This document shows positions 1-18,599 of a stretch of 64,000 nt of DNA, piece by piece. The stretch's first letter is position 1. Each line of letters starts with the position of its first letter. The position numbers were made by a program, and so were the translations under genes. The DNA comes from Thermoanaerobaculia bacterium (GTDB taxonomy: Bacteria > Acidobacteriota > Thermoanaerobaculia > UBA5066 > Gp7-AA6), in contig DATJZU010000035.1 of assembly GCA_035498835.1 (NCBI GenBank), forward strand, positions 8,625 through 72,624. The letters are read 5' to 3'. The notes under the pieces are model-generated. The model ran no database searches, had not been told where the DNA came from, and saw only the letters and a program-made list of their open reading frames with translations.

Positions 1-447
1 GCCGCCCTGACGGCGACGGCCGTCGTTCTCGGCGTCGCTCTCGTTCCGCGCGAGCTCGCCGGGAAGATCGTACGGAGGGACCTCCCACCGGTCGATGAGG
101 CCTCGCGTGCGACGTATTTTTCGTCGCGCCTGCCGTCCTATCCGCTCTACCGGCGATTGAACGCCGAGCACGGCGGCCGCTACACGATCTACGCGTTTCA
201 CGACGAGACGATGAAGTACTTCTGCGAGGGGCGGCATCTTGGCGACTGGTTCGGCCTGGCGTCCTACGGCCGCATGAACCTGTCGAGCGGGAGCGCCCTG
301 CTTCGCAGTCTCCAGCAGCTCGGCGCAGATCACCTGCTCGTCAACGACTCGTACTTTCCGACGCGGTTGCCGCAGGACGACGTCTTCGCGGCCCACTTCG
401 AGGAGATCTTCCGCAGCGGCGCAATTCGCGCCTTCCGCGTCCGCTGA
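1..447 (+). CDS. hypothetical protein, 5'-truncated at window edge (C-terminal ~148 aa)
   Basis: Frame 1 is open from nt 1 to the stop at 445-447, so the Met at 157 in the ORF track is internal. Composition is normal (RYTIYAFHDETMKYFCEGRHLGDWFG...), unlike the shadow ORFs. It converges on the GT-C gene ending at 463. No family recognised. Confidence 0.45.
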   Translation, partial: AALTATAVVLGVALVPRELAGKIVRRDLPPVDEASRATYFSSRLPSYPLYRRLNAEHGGRYTIYAFHDETMKYFCEGRHLGDWFGLASYGRMNLSSGSALLRSLQQLGADHLLVNDSYFPTRLPQDDVFAAHFEEIFRSGAIRAFRVR

Positions 448-462: not shown

Positions 463-2139
463 TCAGGGCCGCGGGCAGAGCTCTACCTCGACGAAATCGT
501 CGTCGATCGTGATCGTCCGGAGCGCGAGGCCCGCTTCCGACGCGAGCGCCGGGATCTGTCTCTGCAGGTCTTCGCGTTCGCCTTCCGGGCGGAGCGTGTG
601 CGGCCCCGTGAAGAGATTGCGATTCACGCTGAACGCCGTCTGGCACGCCAGCCCGACCGCGCCGAAGGTCGCCCGCAGCTCCGCGTAGAGCGCGGGGCTG
701 CGGAAGTCCATGAGGAAGAGAAAGCGGTGGTAGATCGCGGTGAAATGCCGATCTCCGCGAGAGAACTCGTACCGGTCGGCCGGCGGAGACTCCGAAACGC
801 GGCCAGCGGAGCGGCAGTCCCACTGGTAGAAGTCCATGAAGAGGGCGATGAAGTTCAGTTGATCGAAATGCACCACCCCGGTTCCGGGGCCGCCGAGATT
901 CTTCGCGAAGATGCCGGCGCGCACGTTCATCGGCTCGTCGCGAAAGATCTGCGCGTTTCTGTTGTGGAAAGCGGCGAGCCCGATCGCCGCCGCGCCCAGG
1001 GCCCCGAGCGCGAGACGTCCCGGCGGCGGAGCCATTCGCACGAGCCGATCGAAGGCGATGGCCCCCGCGAGGACGGCGAGGTAGAGGATCAGGATCTGGT
1101 GCCGGTGGGTTCCGCCGAAGGGATAGCGGCCGAGATAACCGAGCGCCGCGCCGATGGCGAGGAGAAGCGTCAGCACGAGTGCCGGAAATAGCCGTTCGAC
1201 GCCGCGTCCGGCCGGCGGCCGTTCCGCGGCCGGCGCGAGGATCGCCACCGCGAGAAACAGCGCGAGGACGGTGAGGGCCGCTCGCGGGGCGAGCGCGACC
1301 GGCGAGTAGAGGTTCGCCGTCGCGGCGAGCGTCCGCGCGAGGAACGCTCCCGCGCTCTCCGCGCCGGGTCGAAAGTAGAAACGGGGGAGCCCGCTCGCGG
1401 GCCCGCTCAACATCCGGATCCAGGAGCTCGCGAGGAAGCGGTACAGAGCCGCTCCGACGAGGGCCGGAGGGAGGAGCGTCAGGGCGTCCGCCGCGATACG
1501 GCGGGGCAGCGCGCCGAGGAGACGACGCCGGTAGTCCGGCCGGAGGATCGCGGCGAGAAGCGGCGCGAGCACGACGGCGATCAGGAAGAGGCCCGAGAGG
1601 TACTCGGTCATCAGCGCCAGCGACGCGCAGATCGCGAAGCCCGCGCGGCGTCCGAACGGCGGCGGTGCGTCCATCCGGAAGAGGTCGAGCGCGAAAAGGA
1701 ACGCGGCGAGCACGAAGGCCACGGCGAGCGTGAACCCTTCCACCTGGACGGAGAGCGCGATCGCCGTCGTCGAGAGCGCGATCGCGAGCGCGCCGAGGGC
1801 GCTCGCCGCCGGGACGCATCCCAGCCGGTCGAGGATGAGGCCCACGAGAATCACCGAGCCGACGCCGGCCGCGAGCGGGACGAGGCGGTAGGAGAGGAGC
1901 GAGCGGCTGACACGGTCGCAGGCCTTGAGCAGCAGGAGGAAGAGCGGCGGGTGCGCGATCGTCCCGAGCTCCTGGCGGAAGAAGCGCGCGGCGAAGAGAT
2001 GCCAGGCGCCATTGTGCGAGAGCGGGCGGTGGGCCGCGAGCCACAGCCGCGGGACGAGGGAGATCGCGGCGACTGCGAGGAGAAGGGTCGCCGGGGCGCG
2101 CCGCCCCGATTCGGAAGGGGAGTCCGGTCCGCCGCTCAT
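463..2139 (-). CDS. polytopic membrane glycosyltransferase, GT-C fold (ArnT/PMT-like, presumably polyprenyl-phosphate-sugar dependent) with ~170-aa C-terminal soluble domain
   Basis: This is the C-terminal 558 aa of the 1728-aa track ORF 463..5649, starting at the ATG at 2139 (MSGGPDSPSE...). It has ~11-13 hydrophobic helices, an RLW...AWHLFAARFF N-terminal loop typical of ArnT/PMT-type GT-C enzymes, and a hydrophilic C-terminal domain. Its start overlaps the stop of the upstream giant gene (ATGA at 2136-2139). Confidence 0.7.
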   Translation of the reverse strand: MSGGPDSPSESGRRAPATLLLAVAAISLVPRLWLAAHRPLSHNGAWHLFAARFFRQELGTIAHPPLFLLLLKACDRVSRSLLSYRLVPLAAGVGSVILVGLILDRLGCVPAASALGALAIALSTTAIALSVQVEGFTLAVAFVLAAFLFALDLFRMDAPPPFGRRAGFAICASLALMTEYLSGLFLIAVVLAPLLAAILRPDYRRRLLGALPRRIAADALTLLPPALVGAALYRFLASSWIRMLSGPASGLPRFYFRPGAESAGAFLARTLAATANLYSPVALAPRAALTVLALFLAVAILAPAAERPPAGRGVERLFPALVLTLLLAIGAALGYLGRYPFGGTHRHQILILYLAVLAGAIAFDRLVRMAPPPGRLALGALGAAAIGLAAFHNRNAQIFRDEPMNVRAGIFAKNLGGPGTGVVHFDQLNFIALFMDFYQWDCRSAGRVSESPPADRYEFSRGDRHFTAIYHRFLFLMDFRSPALYAELRATFGAVGLACQTAFSVNRNLFTGPHTLRPEGEREDLQRQIPALASEAGLALRTITIDDDFVEVELCPRP

Positions 2140-5100
2140 CCGGCCGGCGGCGTCGCGAGCCGGCAGTAGAAGAGCTCGGTGTTCCGGATGCCCTGCTCCG
2201 GGAAGTCGTCCTTCGTGTAGTCGACCGTGAACCCGAGCGTGGCGAGCTTGTCGTCGAGATCCGTTCCATAGGAGCGGTACGTGAGCGTACGCCCTTCCCC
2301 CGAGTTGGCGTCGCCGTGGTGCTCCTTCGCCATCAGATAGCGGTCGGACGACGGGTCCGCCGGGTCCACCACCTCGATGCGCGTCACCGTCAGCCGATCG
2401 CGCAAGTGCGGCACCGTGAAGATGTGAACGCCGCCGGGCCTGAGCACGCGGCGGATCTCGGAGTGCGCGCGCTCGTCGAGGCGCACTTGCTCGAGGACGT
2501 CGCTCGTCACGACGACGTCGAAAGACGCGTCGGGGAAGGTCAGCGCCTCCAGGTTCTGGTTCGTCGCGCCGCCGCCGAGGCGCTTGCCGCGCTTCTGCTT
2601 CGGGTCGAAGCGCGAGGTCGAGACGTCGATCCAGGAGCAGCGCGCGAGAAGGTCCGGGATCGGGTAGGCGTTGCCCTCGCCGTAGAAGGCGACCTGCGTG
2701 TCGTAAACGGCGAGCTTCCGCTTCGGCAACGCGTCGCCGAGTGCCGCGAGGTTGTCGGCCCGGGCGCCCGCGAGCTCCTCGGCCGCGCGGAGGAGACCGC
2801 GCGCGATCGAGCGGTAGCGGGACGTCGTCAGGCAGTGGGCGCAGGTCAGCGACTCGCGGAAGAGGAGCGGATCCGTGTAGTAGAAGCGCGTCCTCTCGCC
2901 GCAGACGTTGCACGTGCCCGAGAGCGAGGACATGCCGCGGAAGCGGGGATCGGTTGGTCCTGTCGCTTCCTTTGGCGGCGCCGGCACAGCCGGCGCAGAT
3001 GCTGCGGCCCGCGGCGCCGCCTTCGGCGCGCGCTCTCTCTTCTCCAGGGCCTCCAGCACCGTGTCCACGCGCGCCGACCATGAGTTCTCGCGGCCGACCT
3101 GACGCACCCGCTCCCGATACGCCGCGTCCTTTCCGCGCTCGCGCGCCGGGTCGAGCGCCGCCGCGAAGTCCTCCGCCGTTTGGACGATCGCGACCTCCGG
3201 GTACGCCATGCACTCGGGCATCGGCGTCGTGATCGTGGCCTTCCCGCCCGCGAAGTACTCGTAGAGCTTGAGCGGCGACGTGGCCTTCGTGATGTCGTTG
3301 ATCTTGAACGGAATCGTCGCGACGTCGAAGAGCCGCAGATACCCCGGCAGCGAGTGATAGTCGCGCGGGCCGAGCCAGAGGACGTTGGGGCATTTCAGGA
3401 CCGGCTGCCCGCGCAGGCTCTGGTCGTACATCGGGCCGATCAGGAGGAAGTTCCAGTCCGGCCGCGCGCGCGCGACCTTCTCGAGAAGCTCGTAATCGAA
3501 CCATTCGGCGAGCGCGCCGTAGTAGCCGGCGATCGGCTTGCCGGACTCGCGGAAGGCGCGCAGCTCCTTGTCCTCGGGCAGCGGCGCCTCGTCGTCGGCG
3601 AACCGCTCGAACTCGACGCCGTTCGGCACGCCGACGGCGTCCGGCCGCACGGCCAGCGCCTGCTCGTGAAGCTTCTTCGCGACGCTCGCCACGACCGTCG
3701 CTTCGGCGAGGCCGCGCGCGTGGTTCTTCTCGAGGAGCGCGCGGTCGTACGGGAACACCTCGAGGTCGTCGATCCAGTCGTACACGGACGCGGAGCCGGC
3801 GGGGTAGGCGTCCACCTTCTGCCAGTTGTAGGTGAACGCCCAGAGCAGCGGCTCCGGAAGCTGCTCGAGGAGGCCCTCCGGTCCGCGGAAGAGGAAGAGG
3901 TTCGGCTGGATCTCCTTGAAGCCGTTCACGTCGTCGTGCGCGTTCGAGCAGTCGAAGATCGCGACCCATCCGCGCCGCGCGAACGTGCGCGCGAGGTGAT
4001 GCGGCCGCTGGAAGAGCGCGATGCCCCAGCCGACCGACGGGAGGAACACGACCGCGCCCTCGCTCGCCGCGATGCGCGCGCGCACCGCGTCGAGCTGCTC
4101 CCGGTAGAAGCCCAGATCGGCGCGCTTCCAGACGTCCACGCCTTCGGCCTTCCAGGCCTCGCCCCACTTCTCCTCGTACTTCTTCCGGTTCTCCTCGAAG
4201 AGCGCGAGGTACTTCTTCTCGCCGAGCAGGCGGAACGACGCCTTCTGCCAGTGGTGCACGAACGCGTCGCGCGCGCAGCGGATCTCCCAGCCCTTCGCGC
4301 GGGCGCGGCGGTTGAAGTCGTCGTCCTCGAACATCCCGGTGCCGAAGCGCTCGTCGAGCGCGCCGACCGATTCGTACACCTCGCGCTTCATCGCGAGGCA
4401 GAACATCGCGAGCATCGGGATCGCGAAGACGTGGCCGTCGTTCTCGCGGACGAAGTCCTCGGCCCAGGCGGGCAGGTCCTCGACGCCTTCGTATCCGACC
4501 TCGACCTTCGCCTCGTTCGAGATGGCATTGGTGACGGGGCCGACGAGGCCGAGCTTCGGCTCCGCGGCGAGGTGACGGACGAGCGCCGAGAGCCAGCCGC
4601 GGGTCACGACGGTGTCGTTGTTGAGGAGGACGAGGTAGTCGCCGGTCGCGAGTACCAGCCCCTGGTTGTTGGCGGCGGCGAAGCCGCGGTTGTCGTCGTT
4701 GAGGACCACGCGCAGGTTCGCGTATCGCGACTCGGCTTCGCGCAGGTACTCGCGCGTGCCGTCCTGCGACGCGTTGTCCACCACGATGACCTCGAAATTC
4801 GGCCACTCGGTGCGGCCGTAGAGGCTCTCGAGGCAGAGCCGGTTGAGGGACAGGTTGTTGTACGTCACGACGACGATCGTGGCCTTCGCGAACGTCGCGG
4901 CCACCGCGGGCGCGAGCGCCTCGAACCGTCGCTCCCAGGAGTTCTCTTTCCCGAAGGCGTGCCGGCGCGCGACGAGCGCCGGGTCGTCTTCCGCGAGCGC
5001 TGCCGCGATCTCGCGCTCGAATTCCTCGGCGCGGTTGGCGAGCCGGACGAGAGGCGCCATCGGCGCGACCTCCGGAATTGGCACCGACACGATCGGCCGG

Positions 5101-7604
5101 CCCGCGGCGAGGATCTCGAAGGCCTTGACCGGGCTCGTGGCCTCGGTCAGAGGATTGCGCTTGAAGGGCAGGATGGCCACGTCCATCCGGGCGAGCCAGG
5201 AGGGGATTTCCGCGTACGGCTTCTCGCCCGGCAGCGAGACGTTCGGCAGCTTCGACAGTCGGCTCGTGTCGGCGGTATAGGTCGAGCCCACGAGCAGGAA
5301 GTCCCAGTCGGGCCGTCTTTCCGCGACGTCGGCCACGAGGTCGGAGTCGAACCAGTTGGCGATCGCCCCGTAGTATCCGACGACCGGCCGGGCCTGCCGA
5401 GCGCAAGGCCCGATCTCGAAGTGGCCGGGCTCGCAGGCGTTGGGCAGGAGGAGCACGTTCGCATTCGCCGCGCGGGCCCGCGCTTCGAGGAGGCCGGAAG
5501 ACGCGACGACCAGGTCGGCCGCGGCGAAGAGCTCGCGCTCGTCCTCGGCCATGTCGGGGCGGTTGGTCGTGAAGCCCGCGTGGTCGTCCATGCAATCGTA
5601 GATCACCGGCCAGGCCAGCTCCTCTCGGGCCTTCTGCGCGAGCGGCCACCAGAAAGGCAGCTGGACGACCAGGGCGGTCGCACCGAGCGAGAGGTCGCGG
5701 CGCATGGCGTCGAGGTCCGAGAAAAGCGCGTCGCGGGCGGCGGCGTCCATGGTCTGCCGGTAGACATTGAGCGCGGCGCCGCGGAGCGACACCTCCCAGA
5801 CGTTGTCGCGCTTGCGGCGGAGCTCGTACGGCGCGCCGCCCTCGCGGAACGTCTGCGCGACGTAGAAGACGCGGTGCCCGGCCGCGGCGAAGCGGGACAT
5901 CAACTGCTGCGGTCGCTGGAAGCGGAAGTCCCAGTCGATGATGGGCAGGCAGACGACGTCATGGCGGTTCTCGGCGGCGATCGGCGCCGGCAGCGGAACG
6001 TGGGCCGCGCGCGCCGTCCGGGCGGACGGCGCGGCCGGGGCCGCGGTCCGCGCGTCGGGGCGGGCGGCCGGAGCGCCGCCGCCGAAGAGACGCCGGAGCC
6101 GGCGGCGGAGGGACCAGTAGACCGACATGAGCTTCCAGTAGCGCGAGGTCTGGATCGACAGGATTTCGTTGCGGACCTCGGAGACCTGCTTCTGCAGGAA
6201 GGCCGCCTCGCGCTGGCCGCGCCGCGCCTCGTCCTCGGCGCGCTTCTCGGCGGCGCGCAGCGAGACCGAGAGCGACGCCGCCTCTCGCTCCTTCTCGGAG
6301 AGCCGGCCCGAGAGCGACTGCGCACGCCGCTCCGTCTCGCCGAGCCGCTGCACGAGCCCGCGCTCGATCGGGAATCGTGCGAGCGCCGTCCGGCGAAGCA
6401 GATCGACGATGCCGGCGGTCGCGGCCAGCGCCGGCGCCGCCCCGGACTCGAGCCGCTCGGCGGCGATCTCGGCCGTGCGCCGGGCGCTCTGCGCGAGCGT
6501 GCGGGCGCGCTCGGACAGGTGTTGCGCGTAGCGGCCCCGCTCCTCGAAGGCTTCGGCCAGGCGCGACGCGAGCCCGCCGGCGTCGATCGTTGCGAGCGGG
6601 AGCGCATAGTCGGGCTGGCCGATCTGGCGCATGAACCGCGAGACCTTCGGGTCGTATTCGAGGGAAACGAGCGGCACGCCCGCCGTCGCGGCGAACACGC
6701 CCGCGTGGAGGCGCATCGCAAGCACGAGGTCGCACTGTCCGATCGCCGCCGCGAGCCGCGCGGGGTCGCTTCCTCCCGGCAGGATGCGGGCGGCGTCGCC
6801 GTGGCGCATCCGCTCCCGGACGCGCGCCGCGACGGCCGCGTCGTTCTCCTCGGCGACGGACTCCTGCTGGAACGGCAGGAAGAGCACGGCGCCGCCGCGG
6901 CCCGCCGTTTCGAGGAAGCGATCCAGAGCGCCCGCGGCTGCGGCCTCCCATTGGGCGGGCTCGACGCCGACGTCCCAGTGGCGCAGCGCGACGCCGAGGA
7001 GCGGCCGTTCTTCCGGAATCGCCGGCAGCGGCTCCGGGGCCGCGTCCGCGCGCGGGGCAAACGCAAGCGCGAACGCCGGATCGGCCGTGACCTCGATGCG
7101 CTCGGCCGGCACTCCGAGAGCGACGAGCTCGTCGCGGGACTCGTCGTCGCGCACCGTGATCGTCGCGGCGGCGTCGCAGACGGCCTTCGTGAAATCCCGC
7201 CCGGGTGCCGTCTGGAGCGGTCCGACGCCGGCCGCGTAGATCATGAGCGGCTTTCCATGCAGGACCGCGAGCACGGCCGGCGCGGCGTAGTAGGAGAGGC
7301 CCCAGTGCCGGTCGGTCAGGATGGCGTCGGCGGGGAAGCCCCAGTAATCGTGGAAGATCCCGCCGCCGCCGAGCACGATGAGGTCGGAGCCGCGCGCGGC
7401 GTCTTCGAGGCCGAGCGGATCGCGCCAGAAGACGGTTTCGACGCCGTGGGCCGCCGCCGTCGCGTCGGGATTTCCCGAGACCACCGTGACCGCGGCCTCG
7501 GGCGCGGCCGCGCGCAGGTGCGCCAGGATCGAGGCGAGGATCGCCTCGTCTCCGGCGTTGCCAAAGCCGTAGTAGCCGGCGAGAAGGATGCGGCGCGAGG
7601 TCAC
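2136..7604 (-). CDS. giant multidomain glycopolymer synthase/terminator: polysaccharide pyruvyltransferase (CsaB/WcaK-like) + coiled coil + GT4-like + GT2 + GT4-like + Zn-ribbon + class I SAM methyltransferase (~1822 aa)
   Basis: Uninterrupted ORF (track 2136..7796). The likely start is the GTG at 7604 (alternative TTG at 7616), just before RRILLAGYYGFGNAGDEAILASIL, the conserved N-terminus of the PS_pyruv_trans family. Farther upstream would run into the divergent gene at 7780. Motifs seen: IIDWDFRFQRPQQL with an EATSPVKAFEILAAGRPIV EX7E-like signature (GT4/GT-B); VVVTYNN...VIVVDNASQDGT...DYLVLLNNDTVV (GT2/GT-A); a second GT4-like domain (FLPSVGWGIALFQRPHHL...TSPLKLYEYFAGGKATI); CNVCGERTRFYY...CAHCLTT (4-Cys ribbon); FDVVVTSDVLEQV...VLRPGGVHIFTVPH (methyltransferase type 11). 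A heptad-like segment ERRAQSLSGRLSEKEREAASLSVSLRAAEKRAEDEARRGQREAAFLQKQVSEVRNEILSIQT sits between the pyruvyltransferase and the first GT. Confidence 0.85.
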   Translation of the reverse strand: MTSRRILLAGYYGFGNAGDEAILASILAHLRAAAPEAAVTVVSGNPDATAAAHGVETVFWRDPLGLEDAARGSDLIVLGGGGIFHDYWGFPADAILTDRHWGLSYYAAPAVLAVLHGKPLMIYAAGVGPLQTAPGRDFTKAVCDAAATITVRDDESRDELVALGVPAERIEVTADPAFALAFAPRADAAPEPLPAIPEERPLLGVALRHWDVGVEPAQWEAAAAGALDRFLETAGRGGAVLFLPFQQESVAEENDAAVAARVRERMRHGDAARILPGGSDPARLAAAIGQCDLVLAMRLHAGVFAATAGVPLVSLEYDPKVSRFMRQIGQPDYALPLATIDAGGLASRLAEAFEERGRYAQHLSERARTLAQSARRTAEIAAERLESGAAPALAATAGIVDLLRRTALARFPIERGLVQRLGETERRAQSLSGRLSEKEREAASLSVSLRAAEKRAEDEARRGQREAAFLQKQVSEVRNEILSIQTSRYWKLMSVYWSLRRRLRRLFGGGAPAARPDARTAAPAAPSARTARAAHVPLPAPIAAENRHDVVCLPIIDWDFRFQRPQQLMSRFAAAGHRVFYVAQTFREGGAPYELRRKRDNVWEVSLRGAALNVYRQTMDAAARDALFSDLDAMRRDLSLGATALVVQLPFWWPLAQKAREELAWPVIYDCMDDHAGFTTNRPDMAEDERELFAAADLVVASSGLLEARARAANANVLLLPNACEPGHFEIGPCARQARPVVGYYGAIANWFDSDLVADVAERRPDWDFLLVGSTYTADTSRLSKLPNVSLPGEKPYAEIPSWLARMDVAILPFKRNPLTEATSPVKAFEILAAGRPIVSVPIPEVAPMAPLVRLANRAEEFEREIAAALAEDDPALVARRHAFGKENSWERRFEALAPAVAATFAKATIVVVTYNNLSLNRLCLESLYGRTEWPNFEVIVVDNASQDGTREYLREAESRYANLRVVLNDDNRGFAAANNQGLVLATGDYLVLLNNDTVVTRGWLSALVRHLAAEPKLGLVGPVTNAISNEAKVEVGYEGVEDLPAWAEDFVRENDGHVFAIPMLAMFCLAMKREVYESVGALDERFGTGMFEDDDFNRRARAKGWEIRCARDAFVHHWQKASFRLLGEKKYLALFEENRKKYEEKWGEAWKAEGVDVWKRADLGFYREQLDAVRARIAASEGAVVFLPSVGWGIALFQRPHHLARTFARRGWVAIFDCSNAHDDVNGFKEIQPNLFLFRGPEGLLEQLPEPLLWAFTYNWQKVDAYPAGSASVYDWIDDLEVFPYDRALLEKNHARGLAEATVVASVAKKLHEQALAVRPDAVGVPNGVEFERFADDEAPLPEDKELRAFRESGKPIAGYYGALAEWFDYELLEKVARARPDWNFLLIGPMYDQSLRGQPVLKCPNVLWLGPRDYHSLPGYLRLFDVATIPFKINDITKATSPLKLYEYFAGGKATITTPMPECMAYPEVAIVQTAEDFAAALDPARERGKDAAYRERVRQVGRENSWSARVDTVLEALEKRERAPKAAPRAAASAPAVPAPPKEATGPTDPRFRGMSSLSGTCNVCGERTRFYYTDPLLFRESLTCAHCLTTSRYRSIARGLLRAAEELAGARADNLAALGDALPKRKLAVYDTQVAFYGEGNAYPIPDLLARCSWIDVSTSRFDPKQKRGKRLGGGATNQNLEALTFPDASFDVVVTSDVLEQVRLDERAHSEIRRVLRPGGVHIFTVPHLRDRLTVTRIEVVDPADPSSDRYLMAKEHHGDANSGEGRTLTYRSYGTDLDDKLATLGFTVDYTKDDFPEQGIRNTELFYCRLATPPAG
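2139..2915 (-). other. domain: CxxC...CxxC zinc-ribbon + class I SAM-dependent methyltransferase
   Basis: CNVCGERTRFYY...CAHCLTT, then the methyltransferase motifs FDVVVTSDVLEQV and VLRPGGVHIFTVPH. Confidence 0.65.
3042..4064 (-). other. domain: GT4-like glycosyltransferase B
   Basis: Second GT-B-like domain with a C-terminal TSPLKLYEYFAGGKATI motif. Confidence 0.6.
4152..4895 (-). other. domain: GT2 (GT-A fold) glycosyltransferase
   Basis: VVVTYNN / DNAS.DGT / NNDTVV / ED(D) motifs. Paralogous to the C-domain of the gene at 19481..21529. Confidence 0.7.
5052..5966 (-). other. domain: GT4-like glycosyltransferase A
   Basis: DWDFRFQRPQQL N-terminal motif and EX7E-like C-terminal motif. Paralogous to the N-domain of the gene at 19481..21529. 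Confidence 0.65.
6087..6359 (-). other. domain: predicted coiled-coil spacer (~90 aa)
   Basis: Charged heptad-like sequence rich in E/R/K/A/L/S without Pro/Gly, followed by a Pro/Ala-rich linker. Confidence 0.5.
6477..7604 (-). other. domain: polysaccharide pyruvyltransferase (residues ~65-440 of track ORF)
   Basis: GYYGFGNAGDE N-terminal motif plus ~375 aa with CsaB/WcaK-like features. Coordinates come from residue counting. Confidence 0.7.
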
Positions 7605-7779
7605 GTTCGCGCGCAAGTATATGGAGTGGGAGGACGTCTCGTGCCGCGCGGCCGCTTGTCGGTTCCGGCGCGAGCGTCTACAATTCCGGTAGCTCCCTGT
7701 CGAAAATGACGATCGCGCGCGCGATTTTCCGCACGAGCTCGGCCGCCGTGCGGGACCGCGTCCCAAGGAGGTCACGGCC

Positions 7780-8619
7780 ATGAAGGGACCCCGCATTCTT
7801 AGCCTCGCTCTGGCTTCTGCGCTCGGATTCGCCGGCGTCGGCCGCGCTCAGGCACCTCCGGCCCTGCCGAACCTCGAAGCGCCCCCGCCGGTGCACCCCG
7901 AGCCCGACATTCAGAGAGACGTCGCGTCCGGGAAACCGGCCTCGCCGCGCGACTACGGCGTCGGTAACGTCAACATCCTTCAGATTCCGGCCGCGGCCTT
8001 CGTCCCTTTCAACACCACCTGGACCCACGATGCCAACGGCTACTTCTTTCCGGTGACGTCGAGCACGATCGCGCACGCGTGGGCGCCGCTCCAACTCCCG
8101 AGCGGCGCGAGCATCCAGTACGTCGACCTCTACTACGACGACACGGACGCCACGTACGACGCGACGGCGAAGATTCTCGCGGCGACCGGCAGCGGCTTCC
8201 TGAGCTCCGTGGCCCTCAACCCGATCGGGACCATCGCTTCATCCTCGAGCAATTCCGGGCAGGGATACGCCGCGTCCACCAAGTTTGCCTACACCGTCAA
8301 CAATGACGTGCAGTACAACGGCGGCGCGCAGCTCATCGTGCAAGTCACCTTGCCCTCGACGGCCATTGGATTCAAGGCCGTGGACATCTGGTGGACGCGC
8401 CAGATCTCTCCCGCCCCCGCGACGGCGACCTTCGCCGACGTCCCGACGAATCATCCCTACTTCCGCGTCATCGAGGCGCTCGCCGCCTCGGGGATCACGA
8501 GCGGCTGCGGCGGAAACAACTTCTGTCCGAACGGCACCGTGACGCGGCAGGAGGTCGCCAAGTTCATGGTGCGGGCGCTCGGTCTCTACTGGAACGACTA
8601 CAACCTGGGGCCCTTCTAG
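7780..8619 (+). CDS. secreted protein with one C-terminal SLH (S-layer homology) domain
   Basis: AAGGAGG Shine-Dalgarno 7 nt before the ATG. Signal peptide MKGPRILSLALASALGFAGVGRAQA. The C-terminus FADVPTNHPYFRVIEALAASGITSGCGGNNFCPNGTVTRQEVAKFMVRAL matches the SLH consensus (F.DV...H....I..L...GI..G....F.P...VTR.E.A). It is divergent from the giant gene. Confidence 0.8.
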   Translation: MKGPRILSLALASALGFAGVGRAQAPPALPNLEAPPPVHPEPDIQRDVASGKPASPRDYGVGNVNILQIPAAAFVPFNTTWTHDANGYFFPVTSSTIAHAWAPLQLPSGASIQYVDLYYDDTDATYDATAKILAATGSGFLSSVALNPIGTIASSSSNSGQGYAASTKFAYTVNNDVQYNGGAQLIVQVTLPSTAIGFKAVDIWWTRQISPAPATATFADVPTNHPYFRVIEALAASGITSGCGGNNFCPNGTVTRQEVAKFMVRALGLYWNDYNLGPF

Positions 8620-8668
8620 CGATCGCTTCCGATCGAAGGCGAGCCGGCCCGGCGTAGACTCCTCCCCC

Positions 8669-11656
8669 GTGAGGGTGAGCTGGTCTCGCGTTCTCTGCGT
8701 GCGCCGGGCCGACCCCTTCCGTCTCTCGGTCGGCGACCAGGCGACCGCCGATTTCGGGCCGGGGCTGCTCCGCTTCCTCAGTCTCGCGGACGCGGAAGGC
8801 CGGCGCCTGGGAGAAGGCTTCGCCGGGGAATGGGTCATCCCGATCGCCGCGGCCGGGACCGCCGCCTTCGCCGCCGTCGGCGAGGAGTTCAATCCGTGGA
8901 CGGCCGCGTCGAACTCGGTCATCTTCCACCGCGCCGTCCGCGACGGCGAGACCGTGGAGGCCACGGTCGAGGTGGCGAGCCTCAAGGGGACGTCCGTGCG
9001 GCTGCCGTACCGGATCGTCGGCGCCGAGTCGCGCGATCCCGTGGCGGAGGGCGAGTTCGTCTTCGTCTGCGTCGGCCCGAGTGGGCCGAGGCGCTTCGAT
9101 CCGCGGCTGGTGCCCCGGAGCGCGCCGGAAGCGGCCGGAGCCGTTGCTGGCCGCCCCCCGCTTCCCGTTGCGGTCGGCCGGCCGACGTGGCGTGCGCGCG
9201 CCGCGGGCGCCGTTCTGCCGCGGTCGCTCACGCGCGGCCTGCGCGTCGCGTACTGGCACGGCCTGGCCCAGCGGGGCCGCCGGACCTCGCCCGCCGAATT
9301 CCTGTCGGGCCTCCGAAGCGTGTGGCGGTCCGACGCGGGGCGCGGGACCGAAGCTCCGTTGTCCTTTCGGGATCGCCTTCTCGACGTCTTTCTGCCGCCG
9401 TCCGCCGCGGACGCGTTCCGCGCCGCGTGGCGTGCCCCGAGAGAGACCGCCGAAGCCGGGCCGATCCGGTTCGCGGTGCGGCCCGTCGCACTGGCGAAAG
9501 GCCAGAGCGTCGACCTCCCGATCGAGATCTCGAATCCGGCCGGCGTCTCGATCGACGCCGAGATCGAGATCGAAACGCCGTACGGTTTCGGACTGGCCGC
9601 CGACTGGACGAAGAGCGAAAGGGTGCGGCTTTCGCCGGGCCAGACGGCGGGCGCGTCCGTGAGGGTCACGGCGCTCCGCCCGGACGAGGTCAACCTCGGT
9701 CGTCCATGGCCTCTCGTGTGCCGCCTCCGGGCGGGAGCGGCGGTGCTCGGCTCCGATCGGATCGCGCTCGCCGTCGCGGACCCGGACCCCGGGTCGATCT
9801 TCTACGTCCTCACCGAGGACTGCGAGACGTTCGACGGCGGCGAGACGACGGGCGCGTACGGTGCGGCGGGCGTCCTCGGAAATCGCAACGGCTTCATGGA
9901 TCCGGAGGAGTACCGCGTCCAGATGATCGCGAAGCCCGACGCGCTGAACGCCATCGCGGAGAAGCACGGGGCGCGCTGGACGCACTTCTGGACGGCGCCG
10001 CAGCGCTTCGCGGCGGCGTGGGCGGCGAGCCGATCGAAGACGGGGGCGTGGGACGCGGTGGTCCGCCAGCTCGACGAGTCCGTGCGGCGGGGCTCGCGCG
10101 CGCACGAGTACGCGCCCCACATCCATTTCGACTACGAGCCCGACTCGAGCCTTCCGCCGCAGCCCCGTCTCGTGTACGACGCGAAGACGGACGGAATCCT
10201 TCCGGCCGAGTACTACGATCCGGTATCCAATCCCGACCACCGGTACCACGGCTGGGATGGCGCCCGGAAGGGGATCGCCTACGTGCGCCGCGAGGGAGAT
10301 CTCTCCGACGTCGATTCGAAGAAGGGCTCCCTGCGCAAGTCCGTGCGCTATCTGGCGGATCTGTCTTTCGCCGGGCGCCTCTCCCGATGCGCCCGAACGG
10401 GGGCGGCCGACTTCGGAGCGGCGCCGGCGGATCTCGGTGCGAGCGCGCGCGCGGCCGCGGCCAACGGCCTCGTGGCCAACTCGGATGCCGGGGTCTATGC
10501 GGCGAAGAGCCCGCTGCCGCGGGGCCGGCAGATCTACTTCTGCCGACCGGACGACCTGGACGCGGAGATCGAGGAGCTCTCCGCCGCCGCGCTCGTCGAG
10601 CTGCGCGCGCCCGACTTTCAGCTCGAGCAGGGATCGCTCGAGGAGCTCAACGCGTGGTTCGACCGCCGATACCTCGAATCCCGGGGCCCCGGCGTGCGGG
10701 CGATCATCGCGATGACCCACGCGATGTTCGTCAAAGGCGCGCCGGATCCGTTTCGGGACACGGCGGGAGGCGATTTCGACAAGATCGACCATCACCTGGA
10801 GCACGTGGCCCGCGCACACCCCGACGTCCGGTTCGCGACGGCATCGGAAGCGGCGCTCGAGTTCCTCGACTACTACACGCCGGTGCCGCGCGCCGTGGCG
10901 CTCGAGGCGCGAGCCCGATCCGCCGACGGAACCGTATGGATCCACCCCGTCCGGATCCTGGGCAAGGGGATTCCGCTTCCCGCGCGGCTGACGGTGCAGG
11001 CACCGCCGCATCTGGACGCGCACGCGATCCGTTCCCTCGCGATCCTCGACGCCGGAGAGCCGATGCCGGATTGCTCCTGGACGGCGAGCCCGGGAGAGCT
11101 CGCCTCGGCGGAGTTCACGGCGGTGCGGCGGGAAGGGTACGCCCTGCGCGTCGAGACATCGCGCTCGATCGAGCACCGGCTCTGCGGCGCCGCGGTCCCG
11201 GCCGCGCCCGGCCCTCTCTTCGAGGAGGCCGGCGACGGGAGCGACGCCCGGGCCGATCTCCTTCGGCTCGATCCGCCGGAGCTCCTCCGCGGAGAGGTCC
11301 GAGGCATCGACGCCGTGAAGCCGGGCGACCGCTGGGAGTGGCGTTACCCGGGCGACCTCTTTCACCTGCTCGTCCATCCCGTCGCGGGCAACGCGCATCC
11401 CCTCGGACGGCGTCTCCATCCGTACGGGCGGTATTCCGAGGGCATCGCGATCGACGCCGCCCGGCGGGTGCTCGGGCCCGGCATCCGGCCGGCGGGATTC
11501 GAGCTCCAGTGGGTTCGGCCCGTGCGGGGCGGCGCGGATTTTCGCGTCGCGTGCCTGCTCGAGGCGATGACAGCCGAAGCGGCCGTCATGCAAACTTCGG
11601 TCGAAGAGTCGGGAGTCGAGGTCGCGCGGATCCGTCTGTCACTGGCGCGGTCTTAG
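8669..11656 (+). CDS. multidomain protein: N-terminal hotdog-fold thioesterase-like domain, central beta-sandwich-like segment, C-terminal NodB/polysaccharide-deacetylase-like or glycoside-hydrolase-like domain (995 aa)
   Basis: GTG start, continuous ORF. The N-terminal ~145 aa (GEWVIPIAAAGTAAF...VEATVEVASLKGTSVRLPYRIVG...GEFVFVCVG) resemble 4HBT-type thioesterases. Downstream motifs FYVLTEDCETFDGG and HEYAPHIHFD are reminiscent of the NodB/CE4 TFDDG and His motifs. Family assignment of the large domain is uncertain. Confidence 0.6.
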   Translation: MRVSWSRVLCVRRADPFRLSVGDQATADFGPGLLRFLSLADAEGRRLGEGFAGEWVIPIAAAGTAAFAAVGEEFNPWTAASNSVIFHRAVRDGETVEATVEVASLKGTSVRLPYRIVGAESRDPVAEGEFVFVCVGPSGPRRFDPRLVPRSAPEAAGAVAGRPPLPVAVGRPTWRARAAGAVLPRSLTRGLRVAYWHGLAQRGRRTSPAEFLSGLRSVWRSDAGRGTEAPLSFRDRLLDVFLPPSAADAFRAAWRAPRETAEAGPIRFAVRPVALAKGQSVDLPIEISNPAGVSIDAEIEIETPYGFGLAADWTKSERVRLSPGQTAGASVRVTALRPDEVNLGRPWPLVCRLRAGAAVLGSDRIALAVADPDPGSIFYVLTEDCETFDGGETTGAYGAAGVLGNRNGFMDPEEYRVQMIAKPDALNAIAEKHGARWTHFWTAPQRFAAAWAASRSKTGAWDAVVRQLDESVRRGSRAHEYAPHIHFDYEPDSSLPPQPRLVYDAKTDGILPAEYYDPVSNPDHRYHGWDGARKGIAYVRREGDLSDVDSKKGSLRKSVRYLADLSFAGRLSRCARTGAADFGAAPADLGASARAAAANGLVANSDAGVYAAKSPLPRGRQIYFCRPDDLDAEIEELSAAALVELRAPDFQLEQGSLEELNAWFDRRYLESRGPGVRAIIAMTHAMFVKGAPDPFRDTAGGDFDKIDHHLEHVARAHPDVRFATASEAALEFLDYYTPVPRAVALEARARSADGTVWIHPVRILGKGIPLPARLTVQAPPHLDAHAIRSLAILDAGEPMPDCSWTASPGELASAEFTAVRREGYALRVETSRSIEHRLCGAAVPAAPGPLFEEAGDGSDARADLLRLDPPELLRGEVRGIDAVKPGDRWEWRYPGDLFHLLVHPVAGNAHPLGRRLHPYGRYSEGIAIDAARRVLGPGIRPAGFELQWVRPVRGGADFRVACLLEAMTAEAAVMQTSVEESGVEVARIRLSLARS

Positions 11657-11678: not shown

Positions 11679-12719
11679 GTGGCGGCCGAGTCGATCGTCG
11701 TCGTCTGTCCCGACACGAACGTCCGCCTTTGGGTCTCCCGCGCCTCCGAAGCGCCGACGGGAGGGGGCAAGACCTCGATCCTCCAGCTCGCGGCCGCCTG
11801 GGTGAGGGCCGGCCACTCCGTCACGATCGCGGCATCGGCGGCTCGCCCCGAGGACCGCGACGGCATCGCCGTCCGCGAGATCGAGGCGGCGGCGGGAGAC
11901 TACGACGTCGCGATCTTCGTGACGGGCTCGCTCGGCCATTTCCGCGCGCCGGGTGTCGACGCGATCCGCGCGGACCGCCGGCTGTTCTGGCAGAACGGCC
12001 CGGGAAGGGCAGAGCTTCCGCCCGGCCGGGTGGACTGGTACGTCGCGCCGGCGAAGTTTCTCGCCCGGCGCGCCGTGGACGAGTGGGGGCATCCTCCCGA
12101 GAAGGTCGTCGTCATTCCCGGCGAAGCGGTGCGCCGCCGGCGCGCGGTCTCCGAGGCCGCGTCGCGCGATCCGCTCGCGGCGGTCTACGCGAGCCACCCG
12201 TTCAAAGGGCTCCGGGAAGCGGTCGAGGTGCTCGGGCATCTGCGCGCGGAGTTTCCCGACGTGCGGCTCGACGTGTACGGCTCCGAGCGATTGTGGGCCG
12301 ACGGCGCCGCGCCGTCCGCGGAGCGCGTTCTGCCGGAGTGGGTGCGCCGCGCCGGAGAGACGCCGCAGAGCGAAGTCGAGCGCCGCATGGCGGACTACGG
12401 ATTGATGCTGTACCTGACCGAATGGGTGGACGGGTTCTCGCTTTCCACCGCCGAGGCGCTCGCGGCGGGAGTCGTCGTCATCGCCACGGCGCACGGAGCG
12501 AACGCCGAGTTCCTGAGGCACGGCTGGAACGGCTTTCTCGTGGGCTCGGACGGCGGCCGCCCAGACCTGCTCGAGGCGCAGAGTCTCGCGCGCGCCTATC
12601 TGCGCGATCCGGCGGCCTTTGCCGGCGTCCGCGCCAACGCCATGGCGTCCGTGCCCACCTGGGACGAGCAGGCCGACGAGTGGCGCCGTCTGTGGCGGTC
12701 GCCCCTCAGGGGCGCCTAA
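11679..12719 (+). CDS. GT4 family glycosyltransferase (GT-B)
   Basis: GTG start 23 nt after the previous stop. Motifs GGGKTSILQLA and EGFSLSTAEALAAGVVVIATAHGANAEFL (EX7E signature). Confidence 0.8.
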   Translation: MAAESIVVVCPDTNVRLWVSRASEAPTGGGKTSILQLAAAWVRAGHSVTIAASAARPEDRDGIAVREIEAAAGDYDVAIFVTGSLGHFRAPGVDAIRADRRLFWQNGPGRAELPPGRVDWYVAPAKFLARRAVDEWGHPPEKVVVIPGEAVRRRRAVSEAASRDPLAAVYASHPFKGLREAVEVLGHLRAEFPDVRLDVYGSERLWADGAAPSAERVLPEWVRRAGETPQSEVERRMADYGLMLYLTEWVDGFSLSTAEALAAGVVVIATAHGANAEFLRHGWNGFLVGSDGGRPDLLEAQSLARAYLRDPAAFAGVRANAMASVPTWDEQADEWRRLWRSPLRGA

Positions 12720-12792
12720 AGGCCGATTTCGGGGGGATCCGGCGGGTTACAATTTTCTCCTCGGGCCGGAACGCCCAAACAAAGGACAGATC

Positions 12793-14826
12793 TTGAGGAT
12801 TCGGGGAAGAGGACTCTTTCGCGCGGCCCGCGCGTGCCTCGCCGTCCTGGCGCTCGGCGCCGGCGCGGCCGCCGCGCGCGCGCAGCCCGCCCCGGATGTC
12901 ACGCTCCAGCCGTACATCGGGTCCCTGACGTACCCCCTGGGGTTCGTCAACGCGGGCGACGGCAGCGGCCGCAACTTCGTCGTCACACAGTTCGGAAAGA
13001 TCTTCGTGTACCAGGGAAACACCGGCCTCGGCACGTTCCTGGACGTGAGCGGGCTCCTCCCTTGCGGCGATCCGAGTGCGGGGGGCTGCGGCGAGCAGGG
13101 GCTGCTCGGCCTCGCGTTCCACCCGAACTACGCGTCCAACGGGCTCTTCTTCATCGATTACACGAACGTGGACGGCGACGAGGTGATCGCGCGCTACAAG
13201 GTCTCGTCCGACCCGAACGTCGCCGACCCGGCGAGCGCGACGATCCTCCTCGTCGTGCCCGACCCGTTTCCCAACCACAACGGCGGCCAGCTCCAGTTCG
13301 GGCCCGACGGATACCTCTACATCGCGATGGGCGACGGCGGTTCCGGCGGCGACCCGGGCAACCGCGCACAGAACCTCGGCGTGCTGCTCGGCAAGATCTT
13401 GCGGATCGACGTGGACGGATCGGGAACGGTGCCCTGCGGCCAGTCCACGCCGATGCCCTACGCCATTCCGGACGACAACCCGTTCGTCGGCGCCGCGGGC
13501 GCCTGCGAAGAGGTCTGGGCCTACGGCATGCGGAATCCCTGGCGCTTCAGCTTCGACCGCGAGAACGGCGATCTCTTCATCGGGGACGTCGGGCAAGACC
13601 TCTACGAGGAGGTCGACGACCAGCCGGCGGGCACGCCCGGCGGCCGCAACTACGGCTGGCGCCGCATGGAAGGCTTCCACTGCTACGACCCCGCGGCCAA
13701 CTGCGACGACGGCACGCTGACGCACCCGATCCTCGAGCACGACCACTCCCTCGGCTGCGCGGTGACCGGCGGCTACGTCTATCGCGGCGCGGCCTACCCG
13801 CAGTTGAACGGCGTCTACGTCTACGGCGACTACTGCAGCGGGACGATCTGGGGCGCGGTGCGCGACGCGGCGGGCGTCTGGTCGGAGCGCGCGATCGGGA
13901 CGTCGCAGCTCATCAGCTCCTTCGGCGAGGATGAAGCGGGGGAGCTCTACGTCGTCGAGCACAGCGGTTCGGTGAAGAAAGTCACCAGCGCAACCGCATT
14001 CCTCAAGCCGTCGGTCTCCGCGCTCGCGCCGGGCGCGGCCGTCAAGGGCGACCCGGGAATCCTCCTCACGGTGGACGGTTCGGGCTTCACGCCTTCGTCG
14101 ATCGTGCGGTGGAATGGATCCGGCCGGGCGACGACCTACGTGTCCCGCACGCGTCTCGAGGCGGCGATCCCGGCCGGCGACCTGGCCGCGCCGGGGACGG
14201 CTTCGGTGGCGGTCGCGAACCCGGCGCCGGGCGGCGGCGTCTCGGCGGGAATGACGTTTTCGATCACAAACCGCTTCCTCGACGTGCCGCTCGCGTATCC
14301 GCTGCGGCGTCCGATCGAAGGGATCGCGGCGGCGGGGATCACGACGGGATGCGGCGACCGCATCTTCTGCCCGGAGTCCCCGGTGACGCGCGACCAGATG
14401 GCCGTGCTTCTCCTCCGCGGCGAGCACGGCTCGTCCTATGCGCCGCCAGGGGCGACCGGCACGATCTTCTCCGACGTCTCCAAGACGGCGTTCGCCGCGG
14501 CGTTCATCGAGCGGCTCTCCGCGGAAGGGATCACGACCGGCTGCGGCATGGGGAACTACTGTCCCGCCGTGCCGGTGACCCGCGCGCCGATGGCGAAGTT
14601 CCTGCTGCGCGCGCACGATGGCCCGACCTATCAGCCGCCGCCCGCGCAGGGAGTCTTCACGGACGTGCCGGCGTCGGCGCCGTTCGCCGCGTGGATCGAA
14701 GAGCTGTCCGCCCGCGGCATCACGACGGGCTGCGGCGGCGGCAAGTTCTGTCCCGACATGACCGTCACGCGCGCCCAGATGGCCGCGTTTCTCGCCCGGA
14801 CGTTTTCCATTTCGTTGCCGCCTTAG
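12793..14826 (+). CDS. secreted PQQ-dependent sugar dehydrogenase-like beta-propeller (GSDH/YliI family) + IPT/TIG-like domain + three C-terminal SLH repeats
   Basis: TTG start with an AAGGA Shine-Dalgarno 6 nt upstream. Signal peptide LRIRGRGLFRAARACLAVLALGAGAAAARA. GSDH hallmarks FHPNY...DGYLYIAMGDGG...YGMRNPWRFSFD...GRNYGWRRMEG. Three repeats of the form ...EGIAAAGITTGCGDRIFCPESPVTRDQMAVLLLRG. Confidence 0.8.
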   Translation: MRIRGRGLFRAARACLAVLALGAGAAAARAQPAPDVTLQPYIGSLTYPLGFVNAGDGSGRNFVVTQFGKIFVYQGNTGLGTFLDVSGLLPCGDPSAGGCGEQGLLGLAFHPNYASNGLFFIDYTNVDGDEVIARYKVSSDPNVADPASATILLVVPDPFPNHNGGQLQFGPDGYLYIAMGDGGSGGDPGNRAQNLGVLLGKILRIDVDGSGTVPCGQSTPMPYAIPDDNPFVGAAGACEEVWAYGMRNPWRFSFDRENGDLFIGDVGQDLYEEVDDQPAGTPGGRNYGWRRMEGFHCYDPAANCDDGTLTHPILEHDHSLGCAVTGGYVYRGAAYPQLNGVYVYGDYCSGTIWGAVRDAAGVWSERAIGTSQLISSFGEDEAGELYVVEHSGSVKKVTSATAFLKPSVSALAPGAAVKGDPGILLTVDGSGFTPSSIVRWNGSGRATTYVSRTRLEAAIPAGDLAAPGTASVAVANPAPGGGVSAGMTFSITNRFLDVPLAYPLRRPIEGIAAAGITTGCGDRIFCPESPVTRDQMAVLLLRGEHGSSYAPPGATGTIFSDVSKTAFAAAFIERLSAEGITTGCGMGNYCPAVPVTRAPMAKFLLRAHDGPTYQPPPAQGVFTDVPASAPFAAWIEELSARGITTGCGGGKFCPDMTVTRAQMAAFLARTFSISLPP

Positions 14827-18584: not shown

Positions 18585-18599
18585 CCGGCGTTCAACCCG

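Follow-up and report, generated by a model that had tools for sequence, protein, structure and literature searches.

Can a single enzyme both set the length of a cell-envelope polysaccharide and make the epitope by which proteins are anchored to it? This question is raised by a 64,000-nucleotide stretch of DNA from a Thermoanaerobaculia bacterium (phylum Acidobacteriota; contig DATJZU010000035.1, positions 8,625 to 72,624; hereafter the window, numbered from its first letter). Here, one minus-strand gene (2136–7604) encodes a protein of 1,822 amino acids (aa) that joins a CsaB-type ketal-pyruvyltransferase, by way of a coiled coil, to a block of glycosyltransferase (GT) domains. On balance, we favor the view that this synthase is a WbbB-like terminator-ruler-polymerase of a Wzm/Wzt ATP-binding cassette (ABC) transporter pathway, in which a pyruvate cap would end the chain and form the ligand for S-layer homology (SLH) domains.

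Domain anatomy of the fusion protein

The synthase gene lies in a minus-strand reading frame that runs without interruption from 7796/7847 to 2136, where it terminates. Because the window has a GC content of about 70%, at which long spurious open reading frames (ORFs) are abundant, we checked codon-position composition, and found that, in one frame, every block of 50 codons between about 7600 and 2136 has a GC content at third codon positions (GC3) of 0.86–0.98, with a drop upstream. A GTG codon at 7604 yields VTSRRILLAGYYGFGN, which aligns with the annotated N-termini of the orthologs P0003 and P0006 (MTAPRILLAGYYGFGN, MAPRRILLTGYYGFGN); the gene is therefore 2136–7604. Neither the GC3 scan nor comparison with orthologs gave any sign of a frameshift. 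High-GC genomes do produce long spurious ORFs, and some copies in long-read metagenome-assembled genomes (MAGs; L003/P0007 and L004) have truncated gene calls, which would fit an assembly or sequencing artifact joining separate genes. Such an artifact would have to account, however, for a GC3 that nowhere falls below that range in a single frame along the whole gene, for an intact 1,839-codon ORF in L001, and for more distant fusions in four other phyla. Moreover, a database search for the same architecture, a check proposed in the first-pass annotation of this DNA, found it in full in proteins from at least six independent assemblies (P0001–P0006; JGI, ENA and NCBI). We consider an artifact scarcely credible and ruled it out on GC3 and conservation in independent assemblies; the one uninterrupted ORF recorded in the first-pass annotation is real.

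From N- to C-terminus, the protein comprises a CsaB-type pyruvyltransferase domain, a helical heptad segment of about 90–110 aa, a Trp/Arg-rich helix, a Pro/Ala linker, a GT4 domain (GT4a), a GT2 domain, a TuaH-like GT4 domain (GT4b), a four-Cys ribbon, and a class-I methyltransferase-like domain. The first-pass annotation had listed these modules, the Trp/Arg-rich helix apart, in this order, including three GTs, a Zn-ribbon and a methyltransferase, and Pfam and NCBIfam matches together with invariant cysteines bear it out; the Pro/Ala-rich linkers it described lie at aa 507–548 and about 1525–1560. A phmmer search of the whole protein against the PDB returned GT2 and methyltransferase relatives alone, with no solved pyruvyltransferase and no WbbB among them.

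The pyruvyltransferase domain (aa 1–340; 6585–7604, minus strand) matches Pfam PS_pyruv_trans over aa 16–319 with 122.9 bits (cutoff 25.3), is also matched by NCBIfam, and carries the universal motifs N16xG18D19, R152xxxS156, R208, H300 and K320, each invariant or nearly so in 55 sequences. Motifs found across all pyruvyltransferase clades are NxGD, Rxxx(S/T) and a His (PMC10629545). In Paenibacillus alvei CsaB, H308 and the R207 loop are essential (PMC10435577); R208 and K320 correspond to R207 and K328 of that enzyme, an equivalence by position, without direct alignment to P. alvei CsaB. We built an AlphaFold2 model of aa 1–1185 on 55 sequences (mean predicted local distance difference test score, pLDDT, 84.6; catalytic domains mostly >90), in which the pyruvyltransferase domain likewise has a pLDDT mostly >90. 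The domain may 4,6-pyruvylate β-D-N-acetylmannosamine (ManNAc) on a lipid-linked acceptor. We sought a second pyruvyltransferase in the window and found none.

The spacer that follows (aa 397–485; 6150–6416, minus strand) is a coiled coil, on the evidence of heptad score, periodicity, AlphaFold2 helices and indel sizes. With a crude heptad scorer, whose threshold is the 99.5th percentile of shuffled sequence, only aa 345–387 and 415–488 of the 1,822 residues stand above threshold, the former being the last helix of the CsaB domain; none of the other proteins of the locus scores. Hydrophobicity power at period 3.5 across aa 415–488 is matched by 0.25% of shuffles (p = 0.0025), and AlphaFold2 places helices at aa 356–387, 397–432, 437–485 and 488–506, followed by the disordered Pro/Ala linker at aa 507–548 (5961–6086, minus strand; pLDDT <40, no secondary structure). 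Most telling, in our view, is an alignment of the ten closest sequences, which are 74–92% identical overall: their coils carry indels of +7 (P0005), +11 (P0007), +14 (P0004/P0006) and +18 (P0008) residues, at three sites inside the helix. These sizes read as heptad and hendecad quanta (7, 11, 7+7 and 7+11), which would keep the coiled-coil seam in register. The heptad-like segment of about 90 residues that the first-pass annotation saw between the pyruvyltransferase and the first GT is upheld by all four lines of evidence. By simple arithmetic (1.5 Å per residue), a fully extended helix of about 89 residues would measure about 130 Å.

The Trp/Arg-rich helix, SRYWKLMSVYWSLRRRLRRLF (aa 487–507; 6087–6143, minus strand), coincides with the last of these predicted helices and is conserved family-wide as SRxW(K/R)...YW(R/K)xRR, being present in 55 family members and in the homologous loci L005, L006 and L025. 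The same motif forms the N-terminus of separate polymerase proteins in L009 and L022. It is probably a membrane-interface or docking helix; since its Eisenberg hydrophobic moment (0.61) is among the top windows and no clear outlier, we only infer a role as membrane anchor.

GT4a (aa 549–902; 4899–5960, minus strand) is a TuaH-like, retaining-type domain with a GT-B fold that starts with a W..FRFQRPQQL motif. Its C-terminal half is scored by Pfam Glyco_trans_1_4 (aa 751–867), and Foldseek matches it to the retaining GT-B enzymes MshA, BshA and SPS. The inverting-type GT2 domain (aa 906–1150; 4155–4889, minus strand) matches Glycos_transf_2 over aa 909–1069/1125, retains the motifs DNAS, NNDT and FEDDD, and has a GT-A fold that Foldseek pairs with GalNAc-T and the chondroitin polymerase K4CP. 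GT4b (aa 1186–1525; 3030–4049, minus strand), a second TuaH-like GT-B domain, scores 174 bits against NCBIfam TuaH, with the TuaH-like match at aa 1301–1517, and is 33% identical to GT4a by blastp; both GT4 domains retain the P-V-K..E signature. Overall, Foldseek searches with the aa 1–1185 model returned generic GT-B and GT-A folds, and nothing polymerase-specific except K4CP and Cps3.

The four cysteines of the ribbon, C1565-x2-C1568...C1588-x2-C1591 (2832–2912, minus strand), are invariant in 19 sequences, and the ribbon is modeled as two β-hairpins. The C-terminal domain (aa 1595–1822; 2139–2822, minus strand) has a predicted class-I methyltransferase-like fold: Methyltransf_11 matches aa 1654–1729 (E=1e-10), covering only profile positions 19–95, and the top Foldseek matches are S-adenosylmethionine (SAM) methyltransferases at modest TM scores of 0.4–0.5. 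Its motif I is atypical, an invariant YDTQ..F..G..AYPIP and not the D/E-x-G-x-G-x-G SAM-binding loop, and methyltransferase activity is therefore uncertain. The first-pass annotation had envisaged two capping chemistries, pyruvylation and methylation. The second is not supported: besides its non-canonical SAM motif, the methyltransferase-like domain lies on the polymerase side of the coil and is independently gained and lost among homologs, and nothing marks it as a cap enzyme.

Spacer variation and module exchange in the family

A protein search returned 163 relatives of the synthase, and we mapped the query modules onto 120 of them; more than 100 homologs are held in databases under the automatic name ‘CsaB’. 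The nearest loci belong to Acidobacteriota / Thermoanaerobaculia MAGs (L001–L004; 74–95% identity over the best segment). A common shorter form of about 1,150–1,300 aa, many of whose members are labeled Bryobacteraceae or Acidobacteriota, has the order CsaB-spacer-GT4-GT2, and in other relatives the second GT4 and the methyltransferase module are present or absent. The distance from the YDPK motif of CsaB to the first GT-B QRPQQ motif ranges from 207 to about 500 aa across the family, and that from YDPK to the Trp/Arg-rich helix from 126 to 273 aa. Coil-scoring residues number 0–263 per relative and tend to be more numerous where the spacer is longer; the longest stretch free of Pro measures about 50–340 residues. 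Across more than 100 relatives, coil length varies about five-fold, and the coil is always found immediately ahead of the GT4-GT2 unit, on its N-terminal side. Compared pair by pair, the coil is 58–67% identical, as against 70–87% for the flanking catalytic domains of the same proteins. In P0040, P0041 and P0042, an extra GT follows CsaB, and the coil lies between the ‘CsaB+GT’ and GT4-GT2 units rather than adjoining CsaB. The family rule is one or more distal modules, coil, Trp/Arg-rich helix, linker, and a GT4-GT2 unit with or without a second GT4 and a methyltransferase module.

The distal module itself is exchanged between loci. In L005, a Desulfobacteraceae MAG, a 1,743-aa protein (3924–9155) encoded directly after Wzm/Wzt joins a Sulfotransfer_3 domain, a coil (aa 288–379), SWSWRVTAPVRW, and a GT4-GT2-GT4-methyltransferase block, and shares 43% identity with the query over the part that starts at the coil. 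Judged by its domains, this protein is a candidate sulfate-capping terminator; we did not find a sulfate cap among the termination chemistries named in the literature on ABC-transporter-dependent glycans cited here. In L006, from the cyanobacterium Pleurocapsa, genes for Wzm, Wzt and an epimerase are followed by one for a 2,195-aa protein with the order GT, CsaB, coil, GT4, GT2, GT4, Methyltransf_24. In L025 (Anaerolineaceae), Wzm and Wzt are followed by a 1,304-aa CsaB-coil-GT2-GT2 protein and then by an overlapping gene for a PMT-like membrane protein. The modules are split in L009 (Brevibacillus) and L022 (Lysinibacillus), which are S-layer-glycan-type clusters encoding Wzm, a Wzt with a Wzt_C domain, a separate methyltransferase (in L009 with a coil of 255 aa), a GT4-GT2 protein starting with a TKAWK W motif, and a separate GT4; in L022, genes for an O-antigen-ligase-like protein and an SLH S-layer protein are also present. 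Similarly, L018 (Pseudomonas sp.) encodes Wzm, a Wzt with Wzt_C, a stand-alone 439-aa pyruvyltransferase that is 27% identical to the query domain and ends in a short helix plus SNSFKLTAPLR (tail pattern SxSFKLTAPLR), and a GT4-GT2 protein 41% identical to query aa 545–1148. The large homolog from L031 (Thermoleophilia) shows no distal module that we could recognize. A homologous polymerase is thus found paired with a pyruvyl-, sulfo- or methyltransferase beyond a coil, fused or separate, and the distal enzyme therefore behaves like a cap or terminator module, not like a decorator of repeat units.

Wzm and Wzt are encoded directly upstream of the fusion in the Anaerolineaceae, Chloroflexia, Pleurocapsa and Desulfobacteraceae loci, adjoining it in L005, L006, L025–L027 and L035. 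In a small sample, the Wzt ORF beside a fusion is short wherever its length was read (279 aa in L006, 278 aa in L025, 262 aa in the window), and Wzt_C is present in the split loci L009, L022 and L018; this fused-versus-split pattern is already known not to hold for WbbB of Klebsiella O12.

Transporter operon and SLH-domain proteins beside the synthase gene

A second minus-strand operon in the window begins with a gene for a UDP-N-acetylglucosamine (UDP-GlcNAc) 2-epimerase, the supplier of UDP-ManNAc (21526–22695; Pfam Epimerase_2, 358 bits). It is followed by a 707-aa GT4-GT2 bi-domain synthase (19481–21604), which is a paralog of aa 543–1150 of the fusion (47% identity) without a coiled coil, then by a Wzm-like ABC-2 permease (18600–19478; Pfam ABC2_membrane), a Wzt-like ABC ATPase of 262 aa (17796–18584), and a stand-alone class-I methyltransferase (16975–17799; 274 aa from the ATG at 17799) whose start overlaps the Wzt stop (ATGA, 17796–17799). 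The Wzt has ABC_tran as its only Pfam match and lacks the Wzt_C carbohydrate-binding module (CBM), in agreement with the first-pass annotation, which had described it as lacking a cap-recognizing carbohydrate-binding domain. The stand-alone methyltransferase occupies the gene position of a WbdD-type terminator, without a coiled coil.

Genes for SLH proteins lie on the plus strand between the two minus-strand operons. Divergent from the synthase gene, 7780–8619 encodes a secreted protein whose C-terminus bears a single SLH domain (TRQE motif). Further on lie two genes whose products each carry three SLH domains at the C-terminus: one (12619–14826; SLH triplet at 14266–14811) encodes a glucose/sorbosone dehydrogenase-like protein, the other (14862–16937; tblastn SLH matches at 16251–16919) a secreted protein of 691 aa, which belongs to no recognizable family and whose N-terminus resembles a signal peptide. 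Three SLH proteins and a UDP-GlcNAc 2-epimerase are thus encoded within 15 kb of the synthase gene, a setting that fits the suggestion in the first-pass annotation that pyruvylation may provide an SLH epitope. The arginine of the TRAE motif is kept in all seven SLH domains of the window. In solved SLH complexes, this arginine contacts the pyruvate of 4,6-Pyr-ManNAc; SLH domains bind terminal, not internal, 4,6-Pyr-ManNAc, and the Bacillus anthracis secondary cell-wall polysaccharide (SCWP) is pyruvylated on the terminal ManNAc only (PMC6081394). At the same position as the single-SLH gene, L001 (3151–8136), L002 (3819–9418) and L004 (5460–9628) carry five to six tandem diverged paralogs of it (36–51% identity), and the more distant family member in L049 is also flanked by SLH proteins. 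Besides the TRAE-type arginine, each of the seven SLH domains (8380–8619, 14266–14811 and 16251–16919) carries a Cys pair (G-C ... F/Y-C-P), which, to our knowledge, the classical SLH consensus of Firmicutes lacks.

Two further plus-strand genes in this interval encode a 995-aa protein of no recognizable family (8669–11656; a weak 4HBT match alone) and, as identified by Pfam, a stand-alone GT4 glycosyltransferase (11679–12719). The 995-aa gene is missing from L004 and the single-SLH gene occurs in variable copy number, so the content between synthase and transporter operon varies quickly.

On the other side of the synthase gene, 463–2139 (minus strand) encodes a 558-aa polytopic membrane protein whose start overlaps the synthase stop (ATGA). 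It has no Pfam or NCBIfam match and, searched with a 12-sequence profile, no PDB match. Only 16 homologs were found, all close relatives, one of which matches PMT. Polytopic GT-C-type proteins (PMT-like or YfhO) occupy the equivalent position in L025 and L050, and we detected no similarity between the 558-aa protein and the PMT-like protein at that position in L025. It is possibly GT-C/PMT-like, and may serve as a periplasmic transferase or ligase for the polymer. Window positions 1–447 (plus strand) are the 3′ end of a gene whose L004 counterpart (17174–19051) encodes a 626-aa PMT_2 (GT-C) protein. Just beyond, L004 encodes a second PMT_2 protein of 1,016 aa (20658–23705) and a metallopeptidase-TIG-SLH protein, and the glycan/SLH locus therefore probably extends beyond the window’s left edge.

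In the rest of the window (23–64 kb), we sought genes of the WecA/TagO, TagA, LCP and WaaL types and saw none, only housekeeping genes. Positions 29747–30184 (plus strand) encode a small bacterial RRM_1 RNA-binding protein (94 bits), and positions 56811–60440 (plus strand) a 1,209-aa 2-oxoglutarate dehydrogenase E1 whose N-terminal part is a 2-oxoacid acyltransferase (E2) catalytic domain; OdhA/Kgd-like fusions of this kind are best known from Actinobacteria.

A terminator-ruler-polymerase model, its rivals and its precedents

In the model that we favor, the synthase would be a cytoplasmic, membrane-associated enzyme for an ABC-transporter-dependent cell-envelope polysaccharide. At the membrane, GT4a, GT2 and GT4b would elongate a polyprenol-linked glycan that contains ManNAc, and the methyltransferase-like domain may decorate it. 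An oligomeric coil of about 130 Å would hold the CsaB domain away from the polymerase, with the Trp/Arg-rich helix rooting the coil near the membrane. On reaching the distal CsaB domain, the growing non-reducing end would receive, on its terminal sugar, a 4,6-ketal pyruvate derived from phosphoenolpyruvate (PEP). This cap would block further extension, so that coil length would set chain length, and the SLH domains of the neighboring proteins would bind this same cap as their epitope. The finished chain would then be exported by Wzm/Wzt without a cap-reading module.

The first-pass annotation had drawn a comparison with WbdD and WbbB, and the anatomy fits it: a candidate cap enzyme stands at the far end of the coil and polymerase GTs at the near end, just as a distal terminator on a coil is combined with proximal polymerase GTs in WbdD, WbbB and ORF6-O7 (PMC11231755; PMC3482155). 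The family comparisons add support that goes beyond that annotation, namely variable coil length, heptad- or hendecad-sized indels, and interchangeable distal modules. Pyruvate capping by WbbZ is moreover known to shorten polymerase (WbbZ/WbbY) products in vitro, in a PEP-dependent manner (PMC10629545).

Several observations weigh against this model. The case for it is built from sequence, models and context, from which we infer the polymer itself. The TIGR03609 CsaB model matches aa 5–333 with 206.1 bits, below its equivalog cutoff of 213.1, and the N-terminal domain is thus best called CsaB-like, 7 bits short of that cutoff. The a and d positions of the coil are only moderately hydrophobic, and its helices are modeled at low confidence (pLDDT 44–63), as expected where an oligomeric coil is modeled as a monomer. 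A test of spacer length modulo 7 across 55 members was not significant (chi-square ~11.8, df 6, with non-independent sequences). In two more distant loci, L049 and L050, Wzm/Wzt is not within 10 kb. A 4,6-ketal terminates a chain only where the next linkage uses O4 or O6. Since the window Wzt lacks a CBM, uncapped chains would not be held back, weakening strict length control, and in Klebsiella O1, whose Wzt likewise lacks a CBM, the cap is not used for length control (PMC10629545).

The main rival gives the CsaB domain the task of pyruvylating internal repeats, the coil that of oligomerizing or scaffolding only, and has chain length follow from how synthesis and export balance out, as in Klebsiella O2a/O1. 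The SCWP of P. alvei is a precedent that also counts against a terminating pyruvate: CsaB acts there on a lipid-linked disaccharide, every repeat is pyruvylated, and growth is not stopped (PMC6801904, PMC6081394). The CBM-less Wzt of the window speaks for the same rival, as published CBM-less systems have broad length distributions and the WbbZ cap is not length-setting (PMC10629545). Oligomerization alone, however, leaves unexplained the roughly five-fold range of coil lengths, the rapid heptad-quantized length changes between close orthologs, the fixed position of the coil between distal module and GT4-GT2 unit, and the loci in which a sulfotransferase or a methyltransferase-coil protein stands in for CsaB. 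We judge internal pyruvylation to be unlikely. A third reading, with pyruvate as mere decoration, has the chain ended by a methyl cap from the C-terminal Zn-ribbon methyltransferase-like domain or from the stand-alone methyltransferase. Methyl caps do dominate known systems (PMC10629545), the stand-alone methyltransferase gene is translationally coupled to wzt, and the Firmicute relatives use methyltransferase-coil proteins. Yet neither methyltransferase of the window has a coiled coil or is separated from the polymerase by one, the fused module is missing from many otherwise identical homologs and lacks the canonical SAM-binding glycine loop, and the Wzt has no CBM with which to read a methyl cap. 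This makes methyl termination, to our minds, quite improbable.

The proposed terminator-ruler-polymerase is close in plan to WbbB of Klebsiella pneumoniae O12 / Raoultella terrigena, which, as set out in the passages of PMC11231755 that cite Williams et al. 2017, is likewise one polypeptide of an ABC-transporter pathway with an N-terminal distal cap enzyme, a coil and C-terminal polymerase GTs. Its cap enzyme, however, is a GT99 transferase for 3-deoxy-D-manno-oct-2-ulosonic acid (Kdo), whereas that of the fusion is a PEP-dependent CsaB-type pyruvyltransferase; its dual-GT polymerase modules are unrelated to GT4a-GT2-GT4b and lack the additional Zn-ribbon and methyltransferase-like domain; and the O12 Wzt has the cap-binding CBM that the window Wzt lacks. 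WbbB belongs to lipopolysaccharide O antigen, the fusion to a context of SLH-protein anchoring in Acidobacteriota. We detected no sequence homology between the two with Pfam, NCBIfam, or phmmer against the PDB; by analogy, the fusion would work like WbbB and ORF6-O7 but is not their homolog. ORF6 of K. pneumoniae O7 (methyltransferase-kinase, coiled coil, GT2, GT2) and WbdD of Escherichia coli O9a have in common with it the logic of terminator, ruler, membrane-proximal region and polymerase (PMC11231755; PMC3482155), and WbdD has an amphipathic membrane helix after its coil, as does the fusion in its Trp/Arg-rich helix. They differ from the window system in their methyl or phosphomethyl caps and CBM-bearing Wzt, and WbdD, unlike the fusion, carries no polymerase.

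In chemistry, a precedent is WbbZ of K. pneumoniae O1, likewise a PEP-dependent ketal-pyruvyltransferase acting at the non-reducing end of an ABC-pathway glycan, whose capping stops the polymerase in vitro (PMC10629545). WbbZ is stand-alone, without a coil, and not length-setting, whereas the domain described here is CsaB-type and fused through a long coil; among pyruvyltransferases, WbbZ and the L018 enzyme fall into clades other than that of the fusion domain. Unvalidated candidates for pyruvate termination in Burkholderia vietnamiensis and Pseudomonas protegens are mentioned in the passages of PMC10629545 that refer to a 2019 bioinformatic survey (Mann et al. 2019), and L018 looks like the type sketched there. 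The closest family by hidden Markov model is CsaB of P. alvei, B. anthracis and Thermus, which has the catalytic residues and the association with SLH proteins and a UDP-GlcNAc 2-epimerase in common with the fusion (PMC6030368, PMC10435577). Characterized CsaB enzymes are stand-alone proteins of about 370–400 aa, however, and here CsaB is the N-terminal module of a polymerase. A further multifunctional polymerase with capping activity in an ABC-transporter-dependent pathway, again in an SLH/S-layer organism, is WsaE of the Geobacillus stearothermophilus S-layer glycan, which combines a methyltransferase with two rhamnosyltransferase domains. WsaE differs from the fusion in its methyl cap, in having no pyruvyltransferase, and in its GT families; L009 and L022 belong to clusters of the WsaE type.

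The first-pass annotation knew of no description of such an enzyme, a claim that stands for the fusion and not for its parts. Our literature search found no paper on a polymerase-fused or coil-tethered CsaB, and the words ‘fused’, ‘fusion’, ‘multidomain’ and ‘domain architecture’ do not occur in the 2019 review of pyruvylation (PMC6801904). Pyruvate as a chain terminator is not new: in the passages on the 2019 survey it is already proposed for proteobacteria, the WbbZ cap is proven in Klebsiella O1, and homologs of the fusion had been deposited in the numbers given above. What is new is the fusion of pyruvyl-cap chemistry into a ruler-polymerase format, in a context of SLH proteins and cell-wall polymers, in Acidobacteriota, Cyanobacteria and Chloroflexi. 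Tentatively, and with some doubt, we extend the proposal to a widespread class in these phyla, in which a tethered CsaB would measure and end the polysaccharide and would also place at its terminus the one pyruvyl-ManNAc to which SLH domains bind.

As of 2019, no data favored either a Wzy or an ABC route for polymerization of the P. alvei SCWP (PMC6801904). If our model is right, pyruvylated polymers that serve as SLH ligands can be made by an ABC-transporter/ruler pathway. SLH-based anchoring would then also operate in a Gram-negative phylum, and without cap proofreading by Wzt; we know of no description of such anchoring in Acidobacteriota. The fusion offers a concrete model of one enzyme that sets polymer length and makes the anchoring epitope, and this model bears on why SLH domains bind the terminal pyruvylated residue only. 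A single recombinant protein and natural orthologs differing by 7 to 18 coil residues make the ruler model testable. If true, the ruler principle of WbdD and WbbB would take in a new cap chemistry and would reach cell-wall polymers as well as phyla distant from the enterobacteria, with swappable cap domains and tunable coils as parts for glycoengineering.

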